A program made the position numbers and the translations under genes. Positions 36,297-63,068 of a DNA stretch of 64,000 nt are shown here, piece after piece. The notes under the pieces are model-generated. The model ran no database searches. It was not told where the DNA came from and was given only the letters and a program-made list of their open reading frames with translations. Positions within the stretch are counted from its first letter, which is position 1. The number at the start of each line of letters is the position of its first letter. Source of the DNA: a virus. The stretch is from the IMG/VR virus record IMGVR_UViG_3300017989_000003, positions 6,606-70,605 of that record; one strand, 5' to 3'.

Positions 36297-37649
36297 ATGG
36301 CAAAATCCAAAAAGCCTTTGAAAAAGGCTAAAAGTAAGTTTGACTTTGGTAGCATAGAGCAGTACCAGGGTGCAGATATGATGCCTGCTCTAAACGATGA
36401 CACTAGCTTTTTTTCAATGAAGGGCAAAAAGAATGCTCAGTTGCGTTTATTGCCAGTTGTTCGGAAGGGTGACGTACTGGTTAAAAAGGTTGGTAGACAC
36501 TGGTTCGATTCAAAGCCTTTTACATGTCCTAATATAACTTTCGGAAAACCTTGCTTAGTGTGCGAGCTTCGTAAGTTGTTACCTGACTTGCTTGAGAGTG
36601 CTACTAAAGCTAAACAAAAAATAATTGAAAAGGTCGCAGAAGCTTTGCGTCCTAAAGTCAGGTATTTTATGCGGGTGCTTGACCGAAAAGACATCGGCAC
36701 TGGTGTTCAAGTTTATGACGCTCCTTACCAAGTATTTCAGGTAGTATGGGAAGCTGTTAATAATTATAATATCAATGTTGCGCATCCTGAAGAAGGGTTT
36801 GACCTTTTTATTAGCAAAACTGGCAAGAATCGCGATACTAACTACAACTCACATTTTTCTGATAGTCCATCTGTCTTGGCTGATGATTACGACGAGTTAA
36901 TCCTTGCAATGGAAAATTCAAAATGGGAGTCTTTATGGGACTTAAAACCTGAATTGCAAGAATTTGCAGAGACATACGCTGAAGAAATCGGGGTTGACTT
37001 TAGGGAACTTGCTGAGACATGTGGTATCGAGCTAGATGCTGATGAATACGATGACGACCTTCCTGATATAGGAGAGGCTGACTCTGATGATGTCGAAGAG
37101 GACGAAGAGGACGAAGAGGACGAAGAGGACGAAGAAGATGACGATGAAGATGATGAGGAAGACGAAGAGGACGAAGAGGACGAAGAGGACGAAGATGATG
37201 AAGAGGACGAAGATGATGAAGATGATGAAGACGAAGAGGACGAAGAGGACGAAGAGGACGAAGATGAAGATGATGATGATGATGATGAAGAAGATGATGA
37301 GGAAGACGATGAAGACGAGGTAGTAGAAAGTGCCACTGAAGCAGCAAGAAAAGACAAGGGCGAAGGTAAAGTGGTGAGAAAGAAGAATGGGAAACTTTCT
37401 TACGTTAAGGCTGAGGATGCCCCTGACGACGCGAAAGCTAAAAAGGCAGTTGTTAAGAAAAAGCCTGCTGTTAGAGCTAAAGGCAAGAGCGGTGGCTCGA
37501 ACAAAGGAAGCGCTGTATCTGGTAAGAAAGGCAAATCTGTCGCTAACTCCGCTGTTACTAAAAAGAAATTCGAAAAGAAGGCATCTGCAAAAAAGAGTAC
37601 TAAGGCTGGAAAAGCTATTGTCAAAAAAGCAACAAAAAATAAAAAGTAG
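36297..37649 (+). CDS. T4 gp32-like ssDNA-binding protein with an internal acidic tract and a histone H1-like basic tail
   Basis: LRLLP, HW...FTCP...PCLVC zinc ligands and GFDLFISKTG; then about 85 D/E residues; then a K/A-rich tail. RBS AAGGAG. Confidence 0.85.
   Translation: MAKSKKPLKKAKSKFDFGSIEQYQGADMMPALNDDTSFFSMKGKKNAQLRLLPVVRKGDVLVKKVGRHWFDSKPFTCPNITFGKPCLVCELRKLLPDLLESATKAKQKIIEKVAEALRPKVRYFMRVLDRKDIGTGVQVYDAPYQVFQVVWEAVNNYNINVAHPEEGFDLFISKTGKNRDTNYNSHFSDSPSVLADDYDELILAMENSKWESLWDLKPELQEFAETYAEEIGVDFRELAETCGIELDADEYDDDLPDIGEADSDDVEEDEEDEEDEEDEEDDDEDDEEDEEDEEDEEDEDDEEDEDDEDDEDEEDEEDEEDEDEDDDDDDEEDDEEDDEDEVVESATEAARKDKGEGKVVRKKNGKLSYVKAEDAPDDAKAKKAVVKKKPAVRAKGKSGGSNKGSAVSGKKGKSVANSAVTKKKFEKKASAKKSTKAGKAIVKKATKNKK
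37095..37319 (+). repeat. Degenerate 9-bp (GAAGAGGAC / GAAGATGAT) tandem repeats encoding poly-D/E
   Basis: Directly visible low-complexity array inside the SSB gene. Confidence 0.95.
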
Positions 37650-37655
37650 GTGGTC

Positions 37656-38654
37656 ATGGCTAAAAAGCGCTCGAGTGTTAAGAAAACTGAGAATACCCCC
37701 AAAAAAAAGAACGCATCTGAGCTTACGGGTGGTAAGTCTATTTTTTCGTTGCTATCAGAGGAAGACCCTATATCTAAGGTTAAGCATTGGTTTCCAACTG
37801 GGTTGCCTCTTATGGATACATTTTTATCAGATGGTAGAGGCATCCCTGGGGGAAAGCTTATTGAAGTGTTTGGGAATTTCTCTACAGGCAAAACAGCGCT
37901 GTGTCACTACTTTATACAGATGATTCACCGTCTAGGAGGATGGGCAGTATTTATTGACTTTGAGTCCACTCTTGATGATGAACATCTTAGTTGTTATAAG
38001 GATATAGACTTAAGTAGAGTGTTGTACTCTGCTCCAGAGACTATTGAGGATGCATGGGGAGGAATCTTTGACTTTATTGACAAGTCGAAAGATTACTCCC
38101 CTTTTATTATATGTTTGGATTCGGTATCCGCTGGAGTCCCAAAAGCTGAATTAGGTGATGTACCATCTGTAGCTCCATTAGCCAGGGCGATGTCCCGTAA
38201 TCTGCGTAAGCTAATATTGAAACTTGCTGGAAAGCCTGGGTTTGCTTATTTTACTAATCAGGTTCGGACAAACATAGGTGCGATATCATTTGATAAGACA
38301 ACTAGACCTGGCGGTCATGCTCTGGATTTCTATTCGGACATAATAATAAAAAGTGCGATGAAGAAGAACCTAACAAAAACTGTCAATGGTGTTACAAAAT
38401 CTACGGGATACTTGATAGAACTAACTAGCAAGAAAAACAGGAAAGCTGCTCCTCGGGCTAAATATGAGTTTGTGTTGTCATTTAATCGGGGGGTGGATGT
38501 TCCAGAAACGATATTACATACGTTATTGAAAAATGACATTGCTAGAAAGCGTGGTAATAAGATAGTTGTTGGCGAGAAAGAGTATTCTTCGCGCAATGCA
38601 CTTATTGCTGCTATTGACAAGGACTCTGCTGAGTTTATGAAGTACTTTGGCTAA
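37656..38654 (+). CDS. recA: RecA/UvsX-like recombinase
   Basis: GIPGGKLIEVFGNFSTGKT, FIDFE, CLDSV, TNQVR and PGGHALDFYSD. Confidence 0.93.
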   Translation: MAKKRSSVKKTENTPKKKNASELTGGKSIFSLLSEEDPISKVKHWFPTGLPLMDTFLSDGRGIPGGKLIEVFGNFSTGKTALCHYFIQMIHRLGGWAVFIDFESTLDDEHLSCYKDIDLSRVLYSAPETIEDAWGGIFDFIDKSKDYSPFIICLDSVSAGVPKAELGDVPSVAPLARAMSRNLRKLILKLAGKPGFAYFTNQVRTNIGAISFDKTTRPGGHALDFYSDIIIKSAMKKNLTKTVNGVTKSTGYLIELTSKKNRKAAPRAKYEFVLSFNRGVDVPETILHTLLKNDIARKRGNKIVVGEKEYSSRNALIAAIDKDSAEFMKYFG

Positions 38655-38677
38655 TAAATTACACGAAAGGTAATAAC

Positions 38678-39745
38678 ATGGCTAAATCGAAGAAAAATAG
38701 TAAAGGGAAGTCTAAAGCAAAGAGCAAGAAAGAGTCGCCGGTTTCAAGTGCGACTATGGTGTGGCTTCCTATAAACGATATTGAGGTAATTGAGGGATTT
38801 AATCCAAGGGAGAACCTGGGAGCTCTCAAAGCTTTGGTTGATAGCATAAAGAAGAACGGAATTATCGAAAATTTGGTTGTGTGGGTAAAGGACAGTGTGT
38901 ACTACTTAATATGTGGGCATCGTCGTCTCAAAGCTGCTGTTGAAGCTGGTATGACTGAAGTTCCAGTTACTGTTAGAACTGACGTTAAAGATGCAAATCA
39001 GGCGTTGTTAATAGCTATAGCCGAGAATTCGTCTGATAGCAGGTATAACCTAACTCCTATTGAGGAAGCTATAGCGTTTAATCGACTTAAGGAGGAAGGG
39101 TATAATATTACGGAGATTGCTCTTCAAAGTGGACTGTCCAGGACTAAAGTTAGTCGTACACTTAAGATTTTGGAGTTGCCTGACAGGGTTAGGGACAATG
39201 TTCGTTCTAGCTTACTGTCGGCTAATGCTGCTATGGCTATAGCTGATTTACCAGAGAAAGAAAGAAATGCTGTGTTTAAGAATATCGACAATATTGCGAA
39301 TAAAGCTCAGTTAGACTCAATGCTTGAGAAAATAAGCGTTAAAAAGAAGTCTGATAAAGTCGATATTGAGTATATCACAAAGAACCGCACGAACAAGGAC
39401 ATCCGCAACGCTATTCTTAACTTTTACGACGATTACAAAAATGAGAAAAAGAAAACTGTTCAAGCTAACATTCTCCACATTATAGCTACGCTACTGTGGA
39501 CATTGGGAGAAATTGACTTTATTGATATCGAGGACAAAGTGTTTCTAGAACAGATAGAGTTCATAGATTCGGAGTGGGAAGAGTTGGAGCACAGTGAACC
39601 TGAAGAAGAAGGCGAAGAAGATGACGAGACTTCCGAATACGAAGAAGACGAGGACGCCGATGAGGAAGAGTACGAAGAGGATGATGAAGTCGAGGACGAA
39701 GACGACGAAGAGTACGAAGATGACGACGACGAAGAGTACGAATAG
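38678..39745 (+). CDS. parB: ParB/Spo0J-like protein with an acidic C-terminal tail
   Basis: FNPR, LICGHRRLKAA, AENS...LTPIEEA and an HTH segment. Confidence 0.9.
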   Translation: MAKSKKNSKGKSKAKSKKESPVSSATMVWLPINDIEVIEGFNPRENLGALKALVDSIKKNGIIENLVVWVKDSVYYLICGHRRLKAAVEAGMTEVPVTVRTDVKDANQALLIAIAENSSDSRYNLTPIEEAIAFNRLKEEGYNITEIALQSGLSRTKVSRTLKILELPDRVRDNVRSSLLSANAAMAIADLPEKERNAVFKNIDNIANKAQLDSMLEKISVKKKSDKVDIEYITKNRTNKDIRNAILNFYDDYKNEKKKTVQANILHIIATLLWTLGEIDFIDIEDKVFLEQIEFIDSEWEELEHSEPEEEGEEDDETSEYEEDEDADEEEYEEDDEVEDEDDEEYEDDDDEEYE

Positions 39746-39756
39746 AAGGGGGTTTC

Positions 39757-40257
39757 ATGTTAATTATATTTGATAAACTAGTGGATTTCCTGAAAGCTGG
39801 AGCGCTCAGTATATTTATTAAAGAGTTGCCCCCGAATGAACTACGAACTGAGGATATAATAGTTCTATGTGGGATTGTTTTGGTGTCATTGGATACGGAC
39901 ATAATAGCTAGTACGTCTGTAAGGGTAAAGATGTGCGAGGGTCTTACTAAGGAATCTGTAGTTGAAGAGCTCTCAAAATACTGGCGTATGTATCCTGGAA
40001 CTATAGTTGAATCAATGTCTGACGCTAAATCATTTACGGATGACTCTTTTTTGCTTAAGTCCGTTGAGAAAATTGACGGAGTTGAACATCTCAAAGAGAT
40101 AATTGAAACTGCGGTTAACCATATAGAAGAGAGCAAGCGAAAATCGCCACCTAAGACCTCTGCTCATGATATTGAGGAAATGCTTCGTAAAAGGAAGCAA
40201 AATAAGCTTGCGAAGTTTACTAATCCTATTAACAACAATAGACGTAATAAACCATAA
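39757..40257 (+). CDS. Hypothetical protein
   Basis: 166-aa ORF with RBS GGGGG; no motif recognised. Confidence 0.7.
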   Translation: MLIIFDKLVDFLKAGALSIFIKELPPNELRTEDIIVLCGIVLVSLDTDIIASTSVRVKMCEGLTKESVVEELSKYWRMYPGTIVESMSDAKSFTDDSFLLKSVEKIDGVEHLKEIIETAVNHIEESKRKSPPKTSAHDIEEMLRKRKQNKLAKFTNPINNNRRNKP

Positions 40258-40267
40258 GGTGTAGCAT

Positions 40268-41221
40268 ATGGCGACTCTTATAGTTGATGGAAATAATATG
40301 TGCGCAAGATTTGCACATTCATACGACTTGCTAACTTCTACTGGAAAGCTGTCGGGTGTAGTTTATGGCGTTATGTTGTTTCTTAGACGGTTTCTGAGTT
40401 CGCACAGGGAGTACGATAGGGTTATATTTGCGTTTGACTCTTCTGTACCAAAGTTTAGGTACAAATTATGCCCAGAATACAAAGCTACTAGGGCGGCTCA
40501 ACGTAAGAAGCGTAAGGAGTCAGAGCTTTTTTACTATTCATATATGGAGCAGGTAGAAATTCTTAAAGAGGTATTGCCGAAGTTGAACGTCATAGTTGCA
40601 GTACTACCGAATTTTGAAGCTGATGACGCTGTTTATAAATTGACGCGAGAAATTAAATGCGACGATGGTTTTGCCCTGTATAGCAATGACAGGGATTTTC
40701 TTCAGATGGTTTCGAAAAAGCGTAGGATTGTAGTTGTTAAGCCTGTTCATCATAGACCTATTGACGAGTTTATATCAACAAAGCCTAAATATTATTTGAT
40801 GCAAAGAGCTTTATGGGGAGATGTTTCGGATAATATTAAAGGTGTTAGTGGTATAGGGGAAAAGAGGTCTAACGAGATTATAAAAGCAATTGGCGAATCG
40901 TCTTTAAGTAAGTTTTTCAAGAATGTCGATAAGTGCCCGAAATACCGTGATAAACTCATTGAGAACGAGACTGTAATTAAAAATAATTACAGGGTTATGT
41001 CGTTGAAGTATGCATACGATAACTATTCAGGAGCTGCTATGGGTTTGTACGTGAAAGCAAGATTCTCACCAACTGGGTTTATAGAAATATGCCGCGAGTA
41101 TGAGTTAAAAAGTATGTCGCTTGAGGGTGAGATTTTCGAAAGGTTGTTGCGTGTTATGGAACATTCAATTCCTTCAGATAACTTTAAGAAAGTTAAGAAA
41201 CTTGAGCCTAGAAGAGAGTAA
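40268..41221 (+). CDS. 5'-3' exonuclease / flap endonuclease (T4 RNase H/T5 FEN-like)
   Basis: LIVDGNN, YKATR, FEADD, SNDRDFLQ and GDVSDNIKGVSGIGEK. Confidence 0.95.
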   Translation: MATLIVDGNNMCARFAHSYDLLTSTGKLSGVVYGVMLFLRRFLSSHREYDRVIFAFDSSVPKFRYKLCPEYKATRAAQRKKRKESELFYYSYMEQVEILKEVLPKLNVIVAVLPNFEADDAVYKLTREIKCDDGFALYSNDRDFLQMVSKKRRIVVVKPVHHRPIDEFISTKPKYYLMQRALWGDVSDNIKGVSGIGEKRSNEIIKAIGESSLSKFFKNVDKCPKYRDKLIENETVIKNNYRVMSLKYAYDNYSGAAMGLYVKARFSPTGFIEICREYELKSMSLEGEIFERLLRVMEHSIPSDNFKKVKKLEPRRE

Positions 41222-41399
41222 ATATGAGTGTCCATACTGTGGTTATAAGATACTACTAAGTGTTCTATTGGACGCTTGGATTGACGATATTATCGTCAAG
41301 AAGACAAAAGATGTCAAAGCTTCAACCTGGGAGATTTGTCCAGAGTGCGGCAAAGATTTCAGGATAGTGTGGAGGCTGGATAAAATTGTAAAAGGTTAA
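41202..41399 (+). CDS. Small zinc-ribbon protein
   Basis: CPYC...CPEC; the TTG start is uncertain. Confidence 0.6.
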   Translation: MSLEESKYECPYCGYKILLSVLLDAWIDDIIVKKTKDVKASTWEICPECGKDFRIVWRLDKIVKG

Positions 41400-41413
41400 C
41401 TTTGGAGGTTATT

Positions 41414-41626
41414 ATGTCACAAAAAGTACTTAAGTGTAGTAGTTGCGGTGCTGTTATAGATAGATATCAGAAATTTTGCACAAAATGTGGTGTGAGACTT
41501 GTAGCTACTGAGTCAACATTACCAGACACAAAAAAGTTGTGTCGCAAGTGTAATAAAGTTAACGAAGCTAGTGCCACTTACTGTGAGAATTGTGGTGAGG
41601 ATATCCGTGATTTGCTGATGGAGTAG
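41414..41626 (+). CDS. Double zinc-ribbon protein
   Basis: CSSC, CTKC, CRKC and CENC. RBS GGAGG. Confidence 0.8.
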   Translation: MSQKVLKCSSCGAVIDRYQKFCTKCGVRLVATESTLPDTKKLCRKCNKVNEASATYCENCGEDIRDLLME

Positions 41627-41640
41627 AACCGGAGGTTAAG

Positions 41641-41916
41641 ATGGAAAAAGATTTTACGCAAAGATTCTGGGTTTCGCATGAACACAAAAATCCATTGAAC
41701 TTACAAAAAGAAGAAATAGCAATTTTCAAGTATTTTGAAGATATGAGGGAGTGTGTTGATACGCTCCTTAAATTGGCAGAATACAAAAATCATCGTTTCG
41801 TTGTCAAAACAAAATGTCCGAATTGTCATATGATGATGGAAATTGACATTGATAACGAAACATGGATTTGCGATGAGTGCGACTGCCATTTTAGTAGTGA
41901 TTTTGATATTTATTAA
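41641..41916 (+). CDS. Hypothetical protein with a C-terminal Zn ribbon
   Basis: CPNC...CDEC. RBS GGAGG. Confidence 0.75.
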   Translation: MEKDFTQRFWVSHEHKNPLNLQKEEIAIFKYFEDMRECVDTLLKLAEYKNHRFVVKTKCPNCHMMMEIDIDNETWICDECDCHFSSDFDIY

Positions 41917-41928
41917 TCTGAGGCTAAG

Positions 41929-42273
41929 ATGTGGAAAAATTTATTGCTTACTAAATTATGGTTTCATAATAAAAATATGTGAGCTTCAAATTGTCCGTGT
42001 TTGCGGGCAGATAAAATACCTGCTGAATGTGAAGCTATTGGCGTTAATTTAGAGGACATTACAATAGACGAACAAGAAGGGTGGAAAAGAACAGATGTAT
42101 GCAAAGACAGCGAGTTGCCGTTACAGGTTTTAATTGACAGCCTTGATTTGCTATTAAACGAATGGGCTATAAACAACATGGATTACTATTGGAAAAAACA
42201 TCCTGACGATAAAGAAACGATTGAAGAAGCCAAAGTTTTATATAAACAGCTTACAAAGATTATCGGAGGTTAA
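41929..42273 (+). CDS. Cys-rich protein with an in-frame TGA at codon 18 (selenocysteine, readthrough candidate or pseudogene)
   Basis: RBS GAGG and ATG 41929, then MWKNLLLTKLWFHNKNM-TGA(41980-82)-ASNCPCLRADKIPAEC in one frame. A hairpin lies at 41992-42009. Confidence 0.55.
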
Positions 42274-42274
42274 T

Positions 42275-42847
42275 ATGGCTGATGATGTAATGAAAAAACA
42301 AGTTGGTGGTGACCATTATGTAGATTCAGAGGTACAGCCTATAGAAGTCATAATGAGTAAAAATCTAAATTTTCAGATAGGAAGTGTGGTAAAGTACATA
42401 GCGCGTCGTAACCGCAAGAATAATTCTACGGAAGACTTGAAAAAGGCTGTACACTACCTGGAATTTGAATTGCATCGTATTTCTAATCCTACAGAGTACC
42501 CAAACTTACCAGATATCATAGACGCGTGGGAACTAGATAGCGACTTAACTAAAGTTGTTGAATTACTAACGCAGGACGTGGAAGATTACGCAGTCGCACT
42601 GCGTGAGTGTATAGAACTACTTAATTCTGAGTTGAAGTACATGGAGACTATAAAATCTGTTACGTTACCGATGCAAGATGTGGCTCATTGTAAGTGCACA
42701 AAATGCCCATATAGACATACGCCAAATATGACACAGGAAGAGTTTGATAGGGAATTGGAAAATGCCATGATGGAGAAAAGTGGTTGTGTATTTCCGCTAT
42801 GTTTTACTGTAGTGGTTATCATACTTATTCTATATTGTATTTTATAA
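42275..42847 (+). CDS. DUF3310-like protein with an extra C-terminal Cys motif and hydrophobic tail
   Basis: QVGGDHY...QPIEVI...GSVVKYIAR...EDLKKAVHYL. RBS GGAGG. Confidence 0.8.
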   Translation: MADDVMKKQVGGDHYVDSEVQPIEVIMSKNLNFQIGSVVKYIARRNRKNNSTEDLKKAVHYLEFELHRISNPTEYPNLPDIIDAWELDSDLTKVVELLTQDVEDYAVALRECIELLNSELKYMETIKSVTLPMQDVAHCKCTKCPYRHTPNMTQEEFDRELENAMMEKSGCVFPLCFTVVVIILILYCIL

Positions 42848-42856
42848 AACGGAAAG

Positions 42857-43822
42857 GTGGTCGGGATGCAAAGTGAGCCAATTTTATCTATTGATGTTAT
42901 TACTGACGACGAGACTGGGTTATGGTCACGCGATATTTGCGATATGACCATAGTCACAGACAGAGTTGATAATATCCTTAGGGTTTATGGTGAAAAAGGC
43001 TTTAAGGAAATTATGGAGTTACTTGACGTAATTAAAAACTCTGTTACAGACATGTGGGAAGAGCTTAATGAACTAAATACCTCAAGTAAACTTGAATACT
43101 TATCTAAAAACGAAGAACACGTAAAAACGTTCTTGAGGTCTTTAGGCGCGGTTGAGGTTGACAGTATAGGCAAATACGGTTTCTCACACAGTGAAAGAAC
43201 GAATTCGTACATTACTTGTTGGAACCAACGCACTAAGAAACTAGATGAACCTGAGCGGCTTGTTGAAATTTACTGGCATAATGAAAAGTGTAATCAAAGC
43301 GGTGGAAGTGACGGGCATACAAACGGTATAGACATGCCTGAAATGCGGTTAATGACGCTCCGCGAATTCTATGAGATATTAGATGAGGTGGTAGAAAAAG
43401 TCAAGAAGATAGAAAAAGACGCGACGCCGCCATTTTTAGAAGAGTATAACATCATAGATGTAGACCCTCGGGGTAATGTTATTCGTTTCTACCTTGGTAA
43501 AAATGGGAGTCAATATGGTGATGACTGGAATGACGCGCCATATGAGCATAACGCTGGTCGTGTTTACTTAGAATTTGTGGTGGGTTACGTTGACGTTGCG
43601 TTTCCATTTGAGAGTCATATTGTGTATCCAGAGGAAGGTACGTATCCGCATGAAAGTGGTGCTGAGTATACTAAAAACGATATGCGAGACAGAAAAATAC
43701 ACGCTGTAGAAGTTAATTCTCATAAAATATATTTCGGGGATTACATCAACGACGATTTTAGGAACAAAACTTCTGGGTTTATTTTAAGAGTAATCAAGAA
43801 AATAGAAAATAACCGTGTATAA
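42857..43822 (+). CDS. Phage hypothetical protein
   Basis: The C-terminal FYLG...GDDWNDAPYEHNAG motif is of a type common in phage proteins of unknown function. Confidence 0.7.
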   Translation: MVGMQSEPILSIDVITDDETGLWSRDICDMTIVTDRVDNILRVYGEKGFKEIMELLDVIKNSVTDMWEELNELNTSSKLEYLSKNEEHVKTFLRSLGAVEVDSIGKYGFSHSERTNSYITCWNQRTKKLDEPERLVEIYWHNEKCNQSGGSDGHTNGIDMPEMRLMTLREFYEILDEVVEKVKKIEKDATPPFLEEYNIIDVDPRGNVIRFYLGKNGSQYGDDWNDAPYEHNAGRVYLEFVVGYVDVAFPFESHIVYPEEGTYPHESGAEYTKNDMRDRKIHAVEVNSHKIYFGDYINDDFRNKTSGFILRVIKKIENNRV

Positions 43823-43837
43823 CAGAAAGGATTTATT

Positions 43838-44158
43838 ATGAAGTTGGTAGTACTTGTGCTTGTAGTGTTTCTCACAGGTTGTCTTCCGTATAACATTAAT
43901 GTCGATAACGACATAGCGATAGCTGAGTATAAAGCAGAGCAGATGGTTAGCATAGTTACTTGTGGGCTATTACTACTTATATTGTCGATTGGGCTGATTG
44001 TCTTTATGAAAAATATAAGCGCTATTGATAAAGACGATAGGACGTTTGCTGTTACCATGACATGTGTTGTTTACGGAGCATTAGCAATACTTTTGCTTAT
44101 TGTTATTGGTATATTTACAGGCAATTACGTCGCTCCTAACATTAACTTTCGCCCATAG
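43838..44158 (+). CDS. Putative membrane lipoprotein
   Basis: Signal peptide with lipobox LTGC, plus two further hydrophobic helices. Confidence 0.65.
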   Translation: MKLVVLVLVVFLTGCLPYNINVDNDIAIAEYKAEQMVSIVTCGLLLLILSIGLIVFMKNISAIDKDDRTFAVTMTCVVYGALAILLLIVIGIFTGNYVAPNINFRP

Positions 44159-44172
44159 AAAGGAGCTTTGTA

Positions 44173-44391
44173 ATGCCTACTGATAGTAATGACAGTATCA
44201 TACTGGTATATCAAAAGAACGGTATTGTATACCCTGTTGCTCTCACAAAAGAGCAAGACGAACTCGTAAAAATGGCGTTAAGTGCTATTTTTACAAAAGG
44301 CAACGAAATTGTGGTTTGCATAGATAAACCAATAGGTATCGTAAAGGATTTGAAAATTAACAAAGATAAAATCATAAACGGTGGAGGTTAA
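44173..44391 (+). CDS. Hypothetical protein
   Basis: 72-aa ORF with RBS AAGGAG. Confidence 0.65.
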   Translation: MPTDSNDSIILVYQKNGIVYPVALTKEQDELVKMALSAIFTKGNEIVVCIDKPIGIVKDLKINKDKIINGGG

Positions 44392-44812
44392 AGTGCGAAT
44401 AGTCTACGATAAAGAAGCGGTCAGGTCTTGGGGAAATCGTCATGAGCCGGGAAATACTCCAGATGATTTAGAGAGAAAAGTCATAGAAAAATTAACTCTT
44501 ATCGGAAAGTGGATGCTCGCCGATAAAGTTATATTCCACGATTACGATAAGGGACAAGCCTACTATATTATTAAAGGCGACAAAATGCTTGTATTGTCGG
44601 CACTTTCGACGCCGATTGATGGAGGGTGGATTAACTTTGACGAAAAGGCTATTCCCGATAAATTCAAAGACCCCGCGTTTTGCCCGGATAGTATGAAATA
44701 CGTTGAAATCAACGGGGTTTATTTCAGAGAAATAGACGCAAAAACGGGGTTACCCACAGGTGAATTTTATCACGAAAAATTAGAAGAAGGAGGAAATAAT
44801 GCAACTAGTTAA
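44381..44812 (+). CDS. Hypothetical protein
   Basis: 143-aa ORF overlapping both neighbours. Confidence 0.6.
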   Translation: MEVKVRIVYDKEAVRSWGNRHEPGNTPDDLERKVIEKLTLIGKWMLADKVIFHDYDKGQAYYIIKGDKMLVLSALSTPIDGGWINFDEKAIPDKFKDPAFCPDSMKYVEINGVYFREIDAKTGLPTGEFYHEKLEEGGNNATS

Positions 44813-46418
44813 TCCAAAAGTAATCGTGTATAAAATGCACGAATTTGACGTAATCAAAAAACTCATTGAAATCAACGCTCGACGTTGTTGGCGCTCAGAG
44901 GATAGAATCGGCGAAGGTTCTGCCGACAAAATCATCAAGTTTCTTCGAGACAAAGGGCATCACGCAATGCTCGAATTCGGTGTTATTGCCGTTGAAATCA
45001 CTTGCGACCGCGGAATTAGTCATGAAATTGTGCGTCACAGACTAGCGTCTTACGCGCAACAGTCTACAAGGTACTGTGATGAGGGTAGCGAGAAAAAATT
45101 CGGTGGAGTTAATTTTATCGAGCCATTTTTCTTTGACGAATATGACGATGCTTCTGACGACGATAGAAAAGATATACAATTGCCGCATCCAATACCTGTT
45201 ACATGTATTTCGGTTGGTAGTAAAGCACCAAAAATAACTCCTTGGCATTTTGTAAATGCAGATAAAGGAAGTAAACATTCAATGACCGCGTGGGACGTGT
45301 GGTTCATATCCTGTTTATGGTCTGAGTGGGCTTACAATACACTTCGAAATGAATTTGGAGCAAAACCTCAAGAAGCGCGTGCGGTGCTTCCTAACTGCCT
45401 AAGAACTGTAATTGGAATGCAAGCATCTATTCGTGAGTGGCGTCATGTGCTCAAGCTTCGGTGCCACAAAGATGCACACCCACAAATTAGACAAGTTATG
45501 ATTCCGCTGCTTAAGTTCTTCCAAAAAGAACTGCTTGTATTATTCGAGGATATCGAATACGACGATACGTACAAAGGCGAAAAGATTCCATTACCAGAAG
45601 TCGAAGTAGTCGAGGTTTATGACGAGTTCATCTATAGTAATACGAAAGCAGCAGCATATTGCGAAATACATGACCCGCGCCCTTACGAAGAACCTTACTG
45701 TGACGACGCCGAGGAAGAGGAAGATACTGACGATGAGGATATTTCTAAGGAAGAAGTAAAATTGCATGAGAAACAAAAGTTGCGTTGTGTAGAAATTGAA
45801 TGTCCTTGGCTTGATGAAATCGGTTGCAGAAATCCAGATGGGGCAGAATGTCCAATAAGAAAGAATTTTATTATAGCAACAGTAGGTATTAAGGCGGACG
45901 AACCAACAGCAAATGGCGACATTTACCCACGTGAAGTTGTCGAGAAGATGGTTAATGACGTGAAGGATAAAACTATACTTTTGTATCCATCACAGCCTTT
46001 GGGTGTAAGTGAAGATTCACAAGAAGCTATCGGAGAAGTAGAAAAATTGGAAATTAACAATAACAATGAATTGATTATGAACTGTAAAATTCTTAAACAC
46101 AAAGATGACTTTCCTATTTCAAAATTAATTGAAGATGGGCTTGTTAAAGTCGTACCTAGTGGTGTTGGTAAGTTCGAAGTTGATTCCCAAATTGTAGAGG
46201 AGTTCCAAATAACAAGCTTTGGGGTTGTCGAAACACAACCTATGAAAGAAATGGCACCAATACCCAAAGATACGGTGAAGAAGGTCATAGACTATCTTCA
46301 AGGTATTGCAGGTTCAAGGAAGGCGAGTTTAGGCGACCATCAATCTTATGATGCTTTACTGCCTGTCAAACAAACCGACGGGTTGCTTGATGAACTTAAA
46401 CAAATATTGGAGGATTAA
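44799..46418 (+). CDS. thyX: Flavin-dependent thymidylate synthase ThyX with a C-terminal extension (acidic linker, 4-Cys motif, gp21 protease-like domain)
   Basis: GHHAMLEF, DRGISHEIVRHRLASYAQQSTRY, ARAVLPN and AHPQIR. Confidence 0.93.
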   Translation: MQLVNPKVIVYKMHEFDVIKKLIEINARRCWRSEDRIGEGSADKIIKFLRDKGHHAMLEFGVIAVEITCDRGISHEIVRHRLASYAQQSTRYCDEGSEKKFGGVNFIEPFFFDEYDDASDDDRKDIQLPHPIPVTCISVGSKAPKITPWHFVNADKGSKHSMTAWDVWFISCLWSEWAYNTLRNEFGAKPQEARAVLPNCLRTVIGMQASIREWRHVLKLRCHKDAHPQIRQVMIPLLKFFQKELLVLFEDIEYDDTYKGEKIPLPEVEVVEVYDEFIYSNTKAAAYCEIHDPRPYEEPYCDDAEEEEDTDDEDISKEEVKLHEKQKLRCVEIECPWLDEIGCRNPDGAECPIRKNFIIATVGIKADEPTANGDIYPREVVEKMVNDVKDKTILLYPSQPLGVSEDSQEAIGEVEKLEINNNNELIMNCKILKHKDDFPISKLIEDGLVKVVPSGVGKFEVDSQIVEEFQITSFGVVETQPMKEMAPIPKDTVKKVIDYLQGIAGSRKASLGDHQSYDALLPVKQTDGLLDELKQILED

Positions 46419-46419
46419 A

Positions 46420-46977
46420 ATGGGTTTATTCAAACGAAAATACAGCAAAAAATTTCGAGAAACTATTGACGCTATTATTGATGAGGGAGACAAAAAAGAC
46501 AAGCTCGAAGAAGATAACAATAGATTGCGCAGCTATGCCGCTGGGATAGAGGAAGGCGCATTAAAACTTTTTTTGGTAGATGGGATAGAATCTAATCCTA
46601 AAAAATTGGGTGGGCGGTGGTGTCTTAAAGGAACGAGATTCCCTTTATCCAGAGTGTTAGCAGAAATTTCAGATGATAACAAACTGTCTGAAATTGCAGA
46701 TGATTGTGATTTGGATTTGAAACTTCTTAAGTCAATATTTGAGGATTTAAGTGGTGCGTTGGACGAAAAACCTAACTCCGTAGCTTCTGATAATTCCAGT
46801 TCCATAGATAGCACAAAAACACAAGAAGAAATGGCACTGACGATGCTGCGTGAAGGTTACGAAAATTTCTGCATCGACTACGAAGAAAAGACAGGGCAGG
46901 CAAGACACGATTGCCCATTTACCTTTGAGGGCTACGTTGAACACCTAATCAAAACTAATTGTGGAGAAGGGGGTTAA
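46420..46977 (+). CDS. DUF433-domain protein (paralog A)
   Basis: SNPKKLGGRWCLKGTRFPLSRVL...EIADDCDL. Confidence 0.75.
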   Translation: MGLFKRKYSKKFRETIDAIIDEGDKKDKLEEDNNRLRSYAAGIEEGALKLFLVDGIESNPKKLGGRWCLKGTRFPLSRVLAEISDDNKLSEIADDCDLDLKLLKSIFEDLSGALDEKPNSVASDNSSSIDSTKTQEEMALTMLREGYENFCIDYEEKTGQARHDCPFTFEGYVEHLIKTNCGEGG

Positions 46978-46979
46978 TT

Positions 46980-48329
46980 ATGACAGTACGTGACAAGTTC
47001 AAATTCGGAAAAGTAGTTTATTGCCCTAATTGTGGTAAAGCCCACGATTACGTTGAAAGTTATTCATTCAGCGACGAACTAATGCTGGTTTACAACGTAG
47101 GTGACGAAGTTCCGTCGCATAAAAATAAGAATGTCGTTGTTAAAGAAGACATGGTTTGTTGCGGTGGTAATTTTTATGTCTATGTTGTTATCGAACACGG
47201 TATTTATGTTGGAGCTTTCGTTTGGGACGAAATGCTGTTTCAACTAAGCTACGATGAGGAAGAGTATGACACGTCAGATAGTGGTTACACCTTCGCACTT
47301 CCCGGATGCAAGTTCGATGCCGGGGTTACGTTTCGTGAGGTCGATGAATCTTTCGTCGGTATCCCTGAAGACGTCAAAGACAAACTCAATGAAGTTATTG
47401 AGAACGCCTTTGCTGATACAATTATAACTACAGCGTTAGAGGACGAACTGAAGAAGCATTTTAACGCAGTCAATATAAGAAAAGACAACAATAATTTATA
47501 CATCGACGTTCAGCCTGTAAAGTCAGCAGAATTTATAAAGACGCAGGTCGTTATAGATACCGGTTTATCGTTGGCTAATCGTATAGTATTGCCAATAGTG
47601 AGACCAATGGGTAAATTACATAAGTTAATGACGATTACTGACGACGTAAAAATCACCGCAGATGCTATTATTCTCGAAGATAACCCTACGAAAGAAACGC
47701 TCGAACGTGCTGAAAAAGAGCACAAGATGATTATAGTTCGAGTTGACGGGGATGCCCATGCGGTCTTAGAAAAACAGGAACAATTAATGCGAGAACTTGG
47801 GGAATCGAAACGTGTGGCGGTTTATACAACACCTTACGTCGAGGAAAAAGAAACCGAAGAAGTTGTTAATGAATTTTTATCACTTGGTGGTTTTACAACT
47901 AATTATAGCTGGACGCTTCACAATAATAGCATTGTTCCAAAAAGTGTGTGGATTAGGTACGACGAGTGGACGAGTCCGAAAGATGATGGAAATGGTTCAA
48001 TAAAGGACGGTTATAAGTTGGTCAAGATAGATTATGATACGGGTAGCTTATCGCTTCAAGTGTTTAATGACAAAGAAACACCTACACCGAATAAGCCTAT
48101 TTACGTTTCTTATAGTTATACCGAAACAAAGATTCGTAAAATGACCGATGAAGAGGCTAAAGAATTTTTCGTTAGCAGGCTCAACAATGAGGGTTGGGTT
48201 GCTCCTGCTGGTAAGAAATTTAATTTATCAAATATCACTGTCGTCGATTGCGATGCAATACGCAAAGGCGACGAAATGAAATCTGAAGGTCATGACAAAA
48301 TAGATTTCGAGGAGGATGACAATGAATAG
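46980..48329 (+). CDS. Mosaic protein: Zn ribbon, sheath C-terminus-like fragment and a GTIDYxTG-type domain
   Basis: CPNC...CC; NNNLYIDVQPVKSAEFIK; LHNNSIVPKSV...DDGNGSI...IDYDTGSLSL...VSYSY. Confidence 0.65.
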   Translation: MTVRDKFKFGKVVYCPNCGKAHDYVESYSFSDELMLVYNVGDEVPSHKNKNVVVKEDMVCCGGNFYVYVVIEHGIYVGAFVWDEMLFQLSYDEEEYDTSDSGYTFALPGCKFDAGVTFREVDESFVGIPEDVKDKLNEVIENAFADTIITTALEDELKKHFNAVNIRKDNNNLYIDVQPVKSAEFIKTQVVIDTGLSLANRIVLPIVRPMGKLHKLMTITDDVKITADAIILEDNPTKETLERAEKEHKMIIVRVDGDAHAVLEKQEQLMRELGESKRVAVYTTPYVEEKETEEVVNEFLSLGGFTTNYSWTLHNNSIVPKSVWIRYDEWTSPKDDGNGSIKDGYKLVKIDYDTGSLSLQVFNDKETPTPNKPIYVSYSYTETKIRKMTDEEAKEFFVSRLNNEGWVAPAGKKFNLSNITVVDCDAIRKGDEMKSEGHDKIDFEEDDNE

Positions 48330-60895: not shown

Positions 60896-62525
60896 GCTAG
60901 CCGCATTATTTGGAATTGACTCCCATGTTACTAGACCTAAGGAAGAGCGACCAGTTGCTGAGTCTGACGGTGATGACTATGCCTATGGTAGGCTAAGAGG
61001 TGACATTCTCCAGATGATACTTCGAATGCCGCGCAGTAGAACTGACAGGTATGCTTTGTTGGACGACCTGGATGAGGGTATTGCCGCGTCTGTATTAGAT
61101 TTATATACTGAAGAAACAACCCAGCCAATTCGCGAGTCTAAGCCTCAAGTTCCCATAATAATTAAGAGTGAGAACAAAGCTATTGAAAAGGAAGGAAATG
61201 CACTGCTTAATAAACTTGGCATATCCAGTAATCCTCAGCCGTTAATGCGTGTTATATGCAAGTACGGTGATTTGTTTTACAGGTTGTTTTATAGTGGCGA
61301 GAAAGGCATAGAGTACGGATACATTATAAAAAATCCAGGGACAGTAAGTCGGGAGGAAAGTGACCAGAAGGTTCTAACTGGTTTTAAGCAGGTTGGTGTT
61401 CGTTTCGAAAAGGGTAAAGAACAATCAGACCCGTGGGATTATGTCCACTTTGCTAATTTATTGCATCCAGAGAATTTTCCGTATGGTACGGCAATCCTTA
61501 GTAATTCATATCGTTCTTTGCGGCAGATAATACTATCTGAGGACTCGGTGTTGCTTTACCGTCTTATCCGTCATCCTGACAGATTGTATCATGTTATTGA
61601 TACAGGAGATGCTGACGAAGTTGAACAAAGAAGACAGTTACGTCGGTACGCTTCGGACTTTCGTCGAAGTCAGAATATTAATCCGTCGGTAGGCACCATG
61701 ACGCATAGACATGCGCCTATGACTCCATTGGAAGATATATTTATCGCGATAGGTAACCAGAACGTTAATACGAAAATAGATAAGTTGCCTGGGTCTAGTA
61801 ATGCCTTTGAGGTATATGACCTTGATTACTACATTAATAAATTTTTCTCTGAGGTTAGAGTACCAAAAGCGTTTTTAGGCTTTGAAGGTGACATTAACGC
61901 CAGAGCGACATTAACTAGTCAGTCAATTAGATTTGCGAGAGCGGTTATTCACATGCAGTCAGTGTTAAAAAAGGGTATCAAGCGATTGCTTATGATACAT
62001 TATACTCTTTTGACTAAGAGTAATACTGACCAAACGTACAAGACTGACGAAGATGGCTCTAACTTTAATATAGAAATGTGTTATACGTCAGGGCTAGCTG
62101 AGCTTGATTGGATTAGTCTGATGTTACAACGTTCTGAATACGCCCAGACTCTTTATGCGTACGCTGACAATCCATATATCGATAACCATGCTATGCTGAA
62201 TTACCTTTTCAGGGATATACTAAAGTTGAAAGAAGATGACATTAGTAAGATTGTGCTGAAATCTCCTGTATACCCAGTGCCGCCTAAAGAACAATATCCT
62301 AACATATCTAATATGCGTAAGGCTCGAGTGAAGGGTGTTACACCTCAGGAACAGGAATATGCCAAAGCTATAGTAAAGTCGATTCCATTCAATAGCTTTG
62401 TAGATGAAATACAAGCGTATCTTGAGGACGTAAAACAATTGCATATTGAATCCAATAGACCAGTTACGCCCATTGACCCACGTTCTGCTTTACCTAATAA
62501 TAGTGGTAGTAAAAGTGGGCGGTAG
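60870..62525 (+). CDS. Portal protein (T4 gp20-like)
   Basis: KYGDLFY, DYVHF, YGTAIL, EDSVLLYRLIRHPDR, EDIFI...KLPG and VPKAFLG. Confidence 0.93.
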   Translation: MPMTTKKARLAALFGIDSHVTRPKEERPVAESDGDDYAYGRLRGDILQMILRMPRSRTDRYALLDDLDEGIAASVLDLYTEETTQPIRESKPQVPIIIKSENKAIEKEGNALLNKLGISSNPQPLMRVICKYGDLFYRLFYSGEKGIEYGYIIKNPGTVSREESDQKVLTGFKQVGVRFEKGKEQSDPWDYVHFANLLHPENFPYGTAILSNSYRSLRQIILSEDSVLLYRLIRHPDRLYHVIDTGDADEVEQRRQLRRYASDFRRSQNINPSVGTMTHRHAPMTPLEDIFIAIGNQNVNTKIDKLPGSSNAFEVYDLDYYINKFFSEVRVPKAFLGFEGDINARATLTSQSIRFARAVIHMQSVLKKGIKRLLMIHYTLLTKSNTDQTYKTDEDGSNFNIEMCYTSGLAELDWISLMLQRSEYAQTLYAYADNPYIDNHAMLNYLFRDILKLKEDDISKIVLKSPVYPVPPKEQYPNISNMRKARVKGVTPQEQEYAKAIVKSIPFNSFVDEIQAYLEDVKQLHIESNRPVTPIDPRSALPNNSGSKSGR

Positions 62526-62591
62526 CTTAGTCGATGAAAAGCCCAACGTCTGATAAACGTTGAGACTCTGGTGCAAACCCAGACCGCCCAC
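62516..62591 (+). tRNA. Degenerate tRNA-Ile(GAT)-like cloverleaf (pseudo-tRNA or tRNA mimic)
   Basis: Acceptor TGGGCGG/CCGCCCA; TA; D stem GCTT/AAGC; anticodon stem AACGT/ACGTT with loop CT-GAT-AA; T stem TCTGG/CCAGA with loop TGCAAAC. No GG in the D loop and no CCA. Confidence 0.7.
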
Positions 62592-63068
62592 TTACTTTTT
62601 GAAGCCAAACACAATAGCAAGTAGTTTGTCTATTCTCTTTTCTTCACTTATTTTGTTGGATAAGTCTTTTGTGATACCTTTTTTGCTTAGGTGTGTGTCG
62701 GTGCCCATTTTATGCATGTCAGTAACGATATTATCTTTAAGCTTATGATGAATAACCGTACGTACCATGTACTTGTTGTGCCTATAGTTGTAATACGGCA
62801 TTAGAGTTAGAATGTCCCTAAAGTGAGATGGTTTGCATACAATGGTTCGCTTATTTATGACATTTGTGAGGGATAAAATTATTCCAAGAGCTTCCTCGGG
62901 TTTAATGTGTAATTCATCTGCAAGGTCTATAGCCATGTCTACTAGCACGACATTCTCAAAAGTTTTACTTATTTGTACCTGTTTTAATATTTCTAGAACT
63001 CTACTGTCTTTTAATATAAGAGCATCGCGAATTTTTTTCCTATTGACTGATGTTAGTTTCTCAAACAT
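62592..63068 (-). CDS. Hypothetical protein co-transcribed with queC
   Basis: 158-aa ORF whose ATG overlaps the queC stop. Confidence 0.7.
   Translation of the reverse strand: MFEKLTSVNRKKIRDALILKDSRVLEILKQVQISKTFENVVLVDMAIDLADELHIKPEEALGIILSLTNVINKRTIVCKPSHFRDILTLMPYYNYRHNKYMVRTVIHHKLKDNIVTDMHKMGTDTHLSKKGITKDLSNKISEEKRIDKLLAIVFGFKK

Follow-up and report, generated by a model that had tools for sequence, protein, structure and literature searches.

A small gene in the replication/recombination operon of an uncultured phage, whose complete, 155,386-bp genome from IMG/VR is flanked by direct terminal repeats, carries an in-frame UGA shortly after its start and stays open long after it. The question raised by this locus is whether the UGA ends translation or is decoded, and in the latter case as which amino acid. 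The gene, referred to as S1, lies among small zinc-ribbon genes within the 64,000-nt stretch of DNA analyzed here (bases 6606-70605 of the record), which we call the window. A first-pass annotation of this DNA had left three readings side by side, namely insertion of selenocysteine (Sec), stop readthrough, and a nonsense mutation. Sec is now the best-supported of these, because the genome contains four more UGA-interrupted genes, two verified Cys/UGA pairs and a common spacing between UGA and hairpin loop. We estimate the probability that the UGA of S1 is read as Sec via host machinery at about 0.5, while a nonsense mutation or upstream ORF combined with restart at a downstream TTG is a weaker, tentative option.

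Every sequence statement of the first-pass annotation on the gene itself was confirmed, i.e., a good ribosome binding site and ATG at 41929, 17 codons, TGA at 41980-82 and 114 aa in total. After the UGA, the frame encodes A-S-N-C-P-C-L-R-A-D-K-I-P-A-E-C, and the read-through product contains U18, C22, C24, C35 and C58. The UGA is found in an otherwise intact ORF with its own start signal and a coding-like frame on either side, and the ATG of the following DUF3310 gene lies one base past the final TAA (Table 1).

Translation very probably begins at 41929. Intergenic gaps in this operon are 1-14 nt, and the ATG, 12 nt after the previous stop, fits this packing, whereas initiation at TTG 42001 would open a gap of 84 nt. 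The 17 codons before the UGA have a dicodon coding score of +6.2 bits in frame versus -2.6 and -25.7 in the other frames, and only 0.7% of off-frame 17-codon windows match this value. After the UGA, the score is +12 over the first 17 codons and +62 over the remainder. TTG 42001, 6 codons past the UGA, is the first in-frame start downstream, and the length of its SD-like upstream match is 0, which bears out the earlier claim that it lacks a ribosome binding site. All public gene calls for the gene start at this TTG and give a 90-aa protein. Another public call, of 59 aa in the +1 frame (window 41873-42052; L002 4873-5052), overlaps the start of the UGA gene and is probably spurious, an ORF called to bridge the gap that the UGA creates. 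A frameshift into this +1-frame ORF (41843-42052) was ruled out, as its dicodon score is negative.

Directly upstream (window 41121-41916) are three small zinc-ribbon genes, one with CPYC...CPEC, one with a double zinc ribbon (PF12773) and one with CPNC...CDEC, and the trio is flanked by a 5'-3' exonuclease and the DUF3310 gene. For the U/Cys cluster of S1 itself, a redox or metal-binding role is a guess.

Table 1. Coordinates of the features of S1, in the window, and of the UGA-interrupted genes S1 to S5, in the phage genome.
Feature	Position	Strand	Remarks
Stop codon TAA of the upstream zinc-ribbon gene	window 41914-16	+	from the sequence
Shine-Dalgarno core GAGG	window 41920..41923	+	5 nt before ATG, 4 nt past upstream TAA
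ATG start and 17 N-terminal codons, M-W-K-N-L-L-L-T-K-L-W-F-H-N-K-N-M	window 41929..41979	+	ATG at 41929-31
In-frame UGA, candidate Sec codon	window 41980..41982	+	residue 18, U-x3-C-P-C
Coding sequence after the UGA, 96 codons and TAA	window 41983..42273	+	TAA at 42271-73; Cys at residues 22, 24, 35, 58
In-frame TTG, start of the 90-aa product in gene calls	window 42001..42003	+	within hairpin loop and 3' arm; without SD
Conserved C-terminal helical module, residues 63-110	window 42115..42258	+	sole homolog-bearing part
Two-tier stem-loop, SECIS candidate	window 41982..42036	+	from a fold of 63 nt
Lower helix, 7 bp	window 41982-88 with 42030-36	+	begins at the A of the UGA
Upper helix, 8 bp	window 41991-98 with 42003-10	+	from the fold
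Apical loop GUUU	window 41999-42002	+	begins 16 nt after the UGA
UGA of S1 (gene under study)	genome 48585		
UGA of S2	genome 93339	+	gene 93066-93425; L048 567-926
UGA of S3	genome 103257	-	gene 103111-103383; L048 10612-10884
UGA of S4	genome 103862	-	gene 103734-103946; L048 11235-11447
UGA of S5	genome 106524	-	gene 106417-106602; L048 13918-14103

The UGA is not a sequencing error. The first-pass annotation had considered that the codon might be TGT or TGC in reality, but three other assemblies, one from ENA (L002) and two from Logan runs (L003 and L004), carry the same codon and match the window at 100% identity over 5-10 kb. These identical assemblies come from ERZ27256778, SRR6963311 and SRR14699969 and were compared over window 37001-47273; such a distribution is unusually clonal. 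With 100% identity over 10 kb, all available copies represent a single clone and are silent on evolution, so they cannot show purifying selection on the frame past the UGA.

A global reassignment of TGA (code 4 or 25) was also rejected. TGA ends 25-28 of about 200 crude ORFs, and seven of the 12 long TGA-ended genes have an ATGA start/stop overlap, that at window 56854-57 among them. Under the standard code, 92% of the genome is covered by ORFs (coding density 92%), and a search of the phage genome for tRNA-Sec, a suppressor tRNA and a SelB domain returned none of them. This agrees with the earlier statement that TGA is a normal stop elsewhere in this DNA and is not recoded globally. Large genes have no in-frame TGA, and the in-frame TGAs of the genome number only five, all in small genes.

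In S1, an in-ORF stem-loop is found right after the UGA, with its apical loop a short distance on and with G in the first two loop bases. The hairpin described in the first-pass annotation, with a loop beginning 16 nt after the UGA, exists and has an upper stem of 8 bp closed by GUUU, but the 7-bp lower helix had been missed. The 63-nt fold has a free energy of -16.3 kcal/mol (z = -2.07; 7 of 200 shuffles fold equally well) and ranks in the top 3% of 3000 in-frame 60-mers from the same genome. The annotation had also pointed to a bacterial consensus in which the loop begins 16-37 nt after the UGA. The S1 loop falls within this range, but the range is weak as an argument by itself, since the loose bSECIS description with a 6-bp stem is satisfied after 18% of random in-frame codons. 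The fraction is 4.3% for a stem of at least 8 bp and 0.4% for such a stem at the exact 16-nt spacing. Furthermore, the S1 stem beats 96% of synonymous recodings that keep the peptide and follow the codon usage of the genome, and its arms use the rare codons CCG (14% of Pro) and CGG (6% of Arg). Depending on the test, the significance of the stem-loop is moderate (P about 0.004-0.07), i.e., the S1 hairpin moderately exceeds chance. An Rfam search of the locus returned only noise.

A search for homologs with Cys or TGA at the UGA position had been proposed earlier; we ran it, and it yielded no relative covering this position. No homolog spanning residue 18 was found in 5.8 billion clusters, 1.84 billion representatives, IMG/VR, JGI metagenomes or GenBank phages. 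The search of the 5.8 billion clusters returned the UGA gene itself only, and blastn and tblastn searches of phages with the UGA gene gave no relative. Exhaustive HMMER searching of the 1.84 billion representatives returned the gene itself, repeat-inflated matches, and one protein (P0004) that matches the C-terminal part only. P0004, 60 aa long, stands alone and has a strong ribosome binding site of its own; it matches residues 63-110 at 56% identity and no other part of S1, and is encoded on a 2-kb contig (L047) without synteny with the phage. A likeness of residues 19-58 to an HYR / Ig-like adhesin repeat (PF02494, about 80 aa) was considered and rejected as repeat-summed noise; the phmmer E-values of the giant HYR-repeat proteins result from adding up 6-15 half-domain matches, each of about 28 bits. 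The S1 protein has no match in Pfam at E <= 1, the HYR model included, and no family in PHROGs. Relatives of the phage were sought via neighboring genes as well, where the DUF3310 search gave domain-level matches only and the exonuclease reached at most 33% identity. An AF2 single-sequence model of the protein had a mean pLDDT of 42.5 and was unusable. The searches thus yielded neither a Cys/Sec pair nor a conserved UGA or covariation for S1, which counts against the Sec reading. The standard for selenoprotein genes is at least two Cys homologs at the UGA position (PMC1976440), and by this standard S1 is only a "candidate".

The C-terminal helical module of S1 (L-D-L-L-L-N-E-W-A-I-N ... W-K-K) occurs as the standalone 60-aa gene at L047 1854-2036, on an unrelated small contig. 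The module seems to be a mobile mini-domain.

S1 is one of several interrupted genes in this phage. We scanned the genome by ORF structure and with no hairpin criterion, requiring an SD-led upstream piece, an in-frame stop and an open downstream piece, with no SD start within 30 codons past the stop and no overlap with other genes. The scan returned five small genes with one mid-gene TGA (S1 to S5), and no TAA or TAG case with both halves of 25-50 codons. In S2, the UGA (...PST-U-VDFIENC...) aligns with Cys in an intact paralog from the same genome (...PRT-C-LEFIRSC..., L048 3466-3813); identity is 45%, and the homology runs on past the UGA. S4 (...GCSC-U-EDVDAHREH) is 66% identical to a viral homolog on L049 that has Cys, encoded by TGT, at the same position (...GCSC-C-EDVDAHREH). 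No homologs of S2 were found among cultured phages, and the searches gave none for S3 and S5. It is by such Cys/UGA pairing that selenoprotein genes are generally recognized (PMC1976440, PMC12013277). The genome holds a UGA-specific set of five interrupted small genes, two of which have verified Cys/UGA pairs. S3, S4 and S5 have no start codon of any kind within 30 codons past the UGA, and S1 is the only site of the five with an in-frame start soon after it. U-x3-C-P is found in both S1 and S5, and UGU-CCN forms the 5' arm in both. A reverse scan gave additional UGA-plus-hairpin sites, each of which was antisense to a real gene and was discarded.

The distance between UGA and loop was compared across the five sites. 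In S1, S3, S4 and S5, a contiguous hairpin of at least 5 bp has its apical loop beginning exactly 16 nt after the UGA. At a background of 6.9% per site, the binomial P of this agreement is 1e-4; the family-wise P, estimated empirically for any exact distance from 8 to 40 nt common to four of five random codons, is 0.002. When S1 is left out, a distance of 16 nt is still seen in three of the four remaining sites (P = 0.03); among ordinary TGA stops, 4 of 28 have a hairpin at 16 nt, which is near background. As the spacing criteria were fixed after the hairpins had been viewed, a sensitivity analysis over stem length, loop length and window width was performed, and in its 18 settings the family-wise P ranged from 0.003 to above 0.3. 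The signal of a shared 16-nt spacing is parameter-dependent, and we regard it as suggestive, not conclusive. The synonymous-recoding test gave P = 0.037 for S1, 0.015 for S5, 0.13 for S3 and 0.11 for S4. Compared with in-frame 60-mers, the folding energy of S2 to S5 is unremarkable, and no common motif was found when the loop sequences of the UGA sites were compared. The Cys homolog of S4 on L049 has a small GC hairpin as well, with the loop at 15 nt, so a hairpin restricted to UGA alleles cannot be claimed, and the comparison of S4 with L049 and of S2 with its paralog is not discriminating on this point.

The prototype of an in-ORF SECIS read by SelB is fdhF of E. coli, in which the apical loop reportedly begins 18 nt after the UGA. 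The upper stem of the E. coli SECIS begins 11 nt after the UGA, whereas that of S1 begins 8 nt after it and no bulged U is seen in the S1 upper stem. S1 resembles bacterial selenoprotein genes with an in-ORF SECIS, as described by the bSECISearch consensus used in PMC1976440 and PMC12013277, in that an in-frame UGA interrupts an intact ORF, a stem-loop within the coding sequence begins at the UGA or directly behind it, G opens the apical loop about 16-18 nt past the UGA, Cys is nearby, and UGA is still a stop elsewhere. Unlike these genes, S1 sits in a phage without its own selA, selB, selC and selD, lacks a Cys or Sec homolog, has its UGA only 17 codons from the start, and encodes a protein without an assigned family. 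With S2 to S5, S1 shares the small accessory gene, the single mid-gene UGA and the SD start upstream with none downstream, as well as the 16-nt hairpin loop (three of those four) and, with S5, U-x3-C-P. It differs from them in lying 45 kb away in another operon, in having the strongest hairpin, and in the nearby in-frame start; S2 and S4, in contrast to S1, also have a homolog showing Cys at the site.

If the UGA of S1 encodes Sec, translation would start at ATG 41929, and host SelB and Sec-tRNA(Sec) would decode the UGA under the guidance of the stem-loop, which starts at this codon and presents its GUUU loop 16 nt on. The product would be a 114-aa protein with a U-x3-C-P-C motif ahead of the conserved two-helix C-terminal module. 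This one mechanism would explain the UGA specificity, the Cys/UGA pairs, the intact frames, the lack of starts in S3 to S5, and the common spacing. For S1, the Sec reading rests on analogy and on its own moderately significant hairpin. By this analogy, S1 would belong to the same programme as the other UGA genes, and the residue inserted at its UGA would be Sec. Counting against Sec at S1 are the position of the UGA, just 17 codons from the start, and the TTG, as a restart there could express most of the protein without recoding.

Such a restart would turn the locus into two cistrons, the first an upstream ORF of 17 codons, present either by design as a leader or as what a fixed nonsense mutation has left, and the second giving a 90-aa protein from TTG 42001. 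By classical translational coupling, the hairpin would mask the TTG until a terminating ribosome melts the 5' arm. We consider this arrangement, the main alternative to Sec, possible, though on balance doubtful; it applies to S1 alone, since no other site has a start close by. The in-frame TTG indeed lies 6 codons past the UGA, where the hairpin has its loop and 3' arm, and being without SD it would need coupling; as in the termination-reinitiation of phage and bacterial operons, a short ORF led by an SD stops 18 nt ahead of a start codon that has no SD and is buried in a hairpin. The 90-aa product of all public gene calls and the lack of comparative proof of recoding at S1 also fit two cistrons, and P0004, the sole homolog, is without the N-terminal half, which means that the conserved module does not need residues 1-24. 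However, two cistrons leave unexplained why the interrupted small genes of this genome all have TGA, and restart cannot be the general mechanism, given that S3, S4 and S5 are startless within 30 codons. We estimate that an in-frame start would occur by chance among 6-7 codons in roughly a quarter of cases. Coupling also gives no reason for a loop spacing equal to that of other UGA sites, and the C-P-C cluster right after the UGA would go untranslated. Coupled gene pairs usually overlap or abut (ATGA or TAATG), and elsewhere in this genome ATGA overlaps are indeed seen, while in S1 the stop and the putative restart share a frame with Cys-rich codons between them. In addition, the stop of S1 is the very codon that the genome seems to recode elsewhere.

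The UGA could also be decoded as an amino acid other than Sec. In some Clostridia and Desulfobacterota, a tRNA(Sec)-like Cys tRNA inserts Cys via SelB and SECIS, and low-level readthrough of UGA by near-cognate Trp or Cys tRNAs is exemplified by the Q-beta coat gene. The intact frame, the hairpin and the UGA specificity support such decoding with the same structural evidence as Sec, S2 and S4, with their Cys/UGA pairs, are as compatible with Cys insertion as with Sec, and no result computed here separates Sec from Cys. SelB-dependent recoding to Cys is, however, rarer than Sec, and leaky readthrough needs no hairpin and leaves both the common spacing and the location of the UGAs at Cys positions, not at gene 3' ends, unexplained. 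We therefore think it unlikely that S1 is decoded in one of these ways. Still less credible is a dead gene, in which a change from TGY or TGG to TGA knocked out an accessory gene that this clone can do without, and no product arises past the stop. In favor of a dead gene, S1 is an orphan, and its copies, all of a single clone (100% identity over 10 kb), cannot demonstrate purifying selection past the UGA. Against this, five nonsense events that are all TGA and never TAA or TAG would be unlikely by chance in an AT-rich genome with 92% coding density. Moreover, frame and homology persist past the UGA in S2, and in S1 the UGA is followed by 96 open codons that score well as coding.

With Sec at these UGAs, we infer that the host carries selA, selB, selC and selD. 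The sole tRNA of the phage, a tRNA-Ile(GAU) at window 62515-62592, is highly divergent from bacterial tRNA-Ile, and a host search based on it gave no match for this reason; a csp scan for the host gave identities of at most 59% spread over many phyla.

Selenoproteins are known from cells and a few animal viruses, and our full-text literature searches brought up no phage-encoded example. If the Sec reading is true, a lytic-type 155-kb phage borrows the SelB pathway of its host for several accessory genes, and the fitness of the phage could depend on the selenium status of the host. SECIS hairpins could then point to Sec-using hosts of uncultured phages. Standard gene callers would truncate or miss such genes, and the database entries for S1 are all the 90-aa fragment. 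S1 extends the set of UGA genes to a second genome region and has the strongest hairpin of the set, which makes it a convenient reporter construct. A more speculative idea, which we hold to be improbable, combines Sec decoding and restart into a selenium switch. With Sec-tRNA present, the 114-aa selenoprotein with its U-x3-C-P-C center would be made; in its absence, termination would give a 17-aa peptide and, once the hairpin has melted, restart at the TTG a 90-aa variant without the redox/metal site. The switch at S1 would be part of a selenium-dependent programme of at least five accessory genes in two genome regions, and the phage would in this way sense the selenium or redox state of the host.

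Two further regularities were seen around the UGAs. S2 (93339) and S5 (106524) have the same six bases, AGUACA (Ser-Thr), just before the UGA, and a G follows directly after the UGA in four of the five sites.
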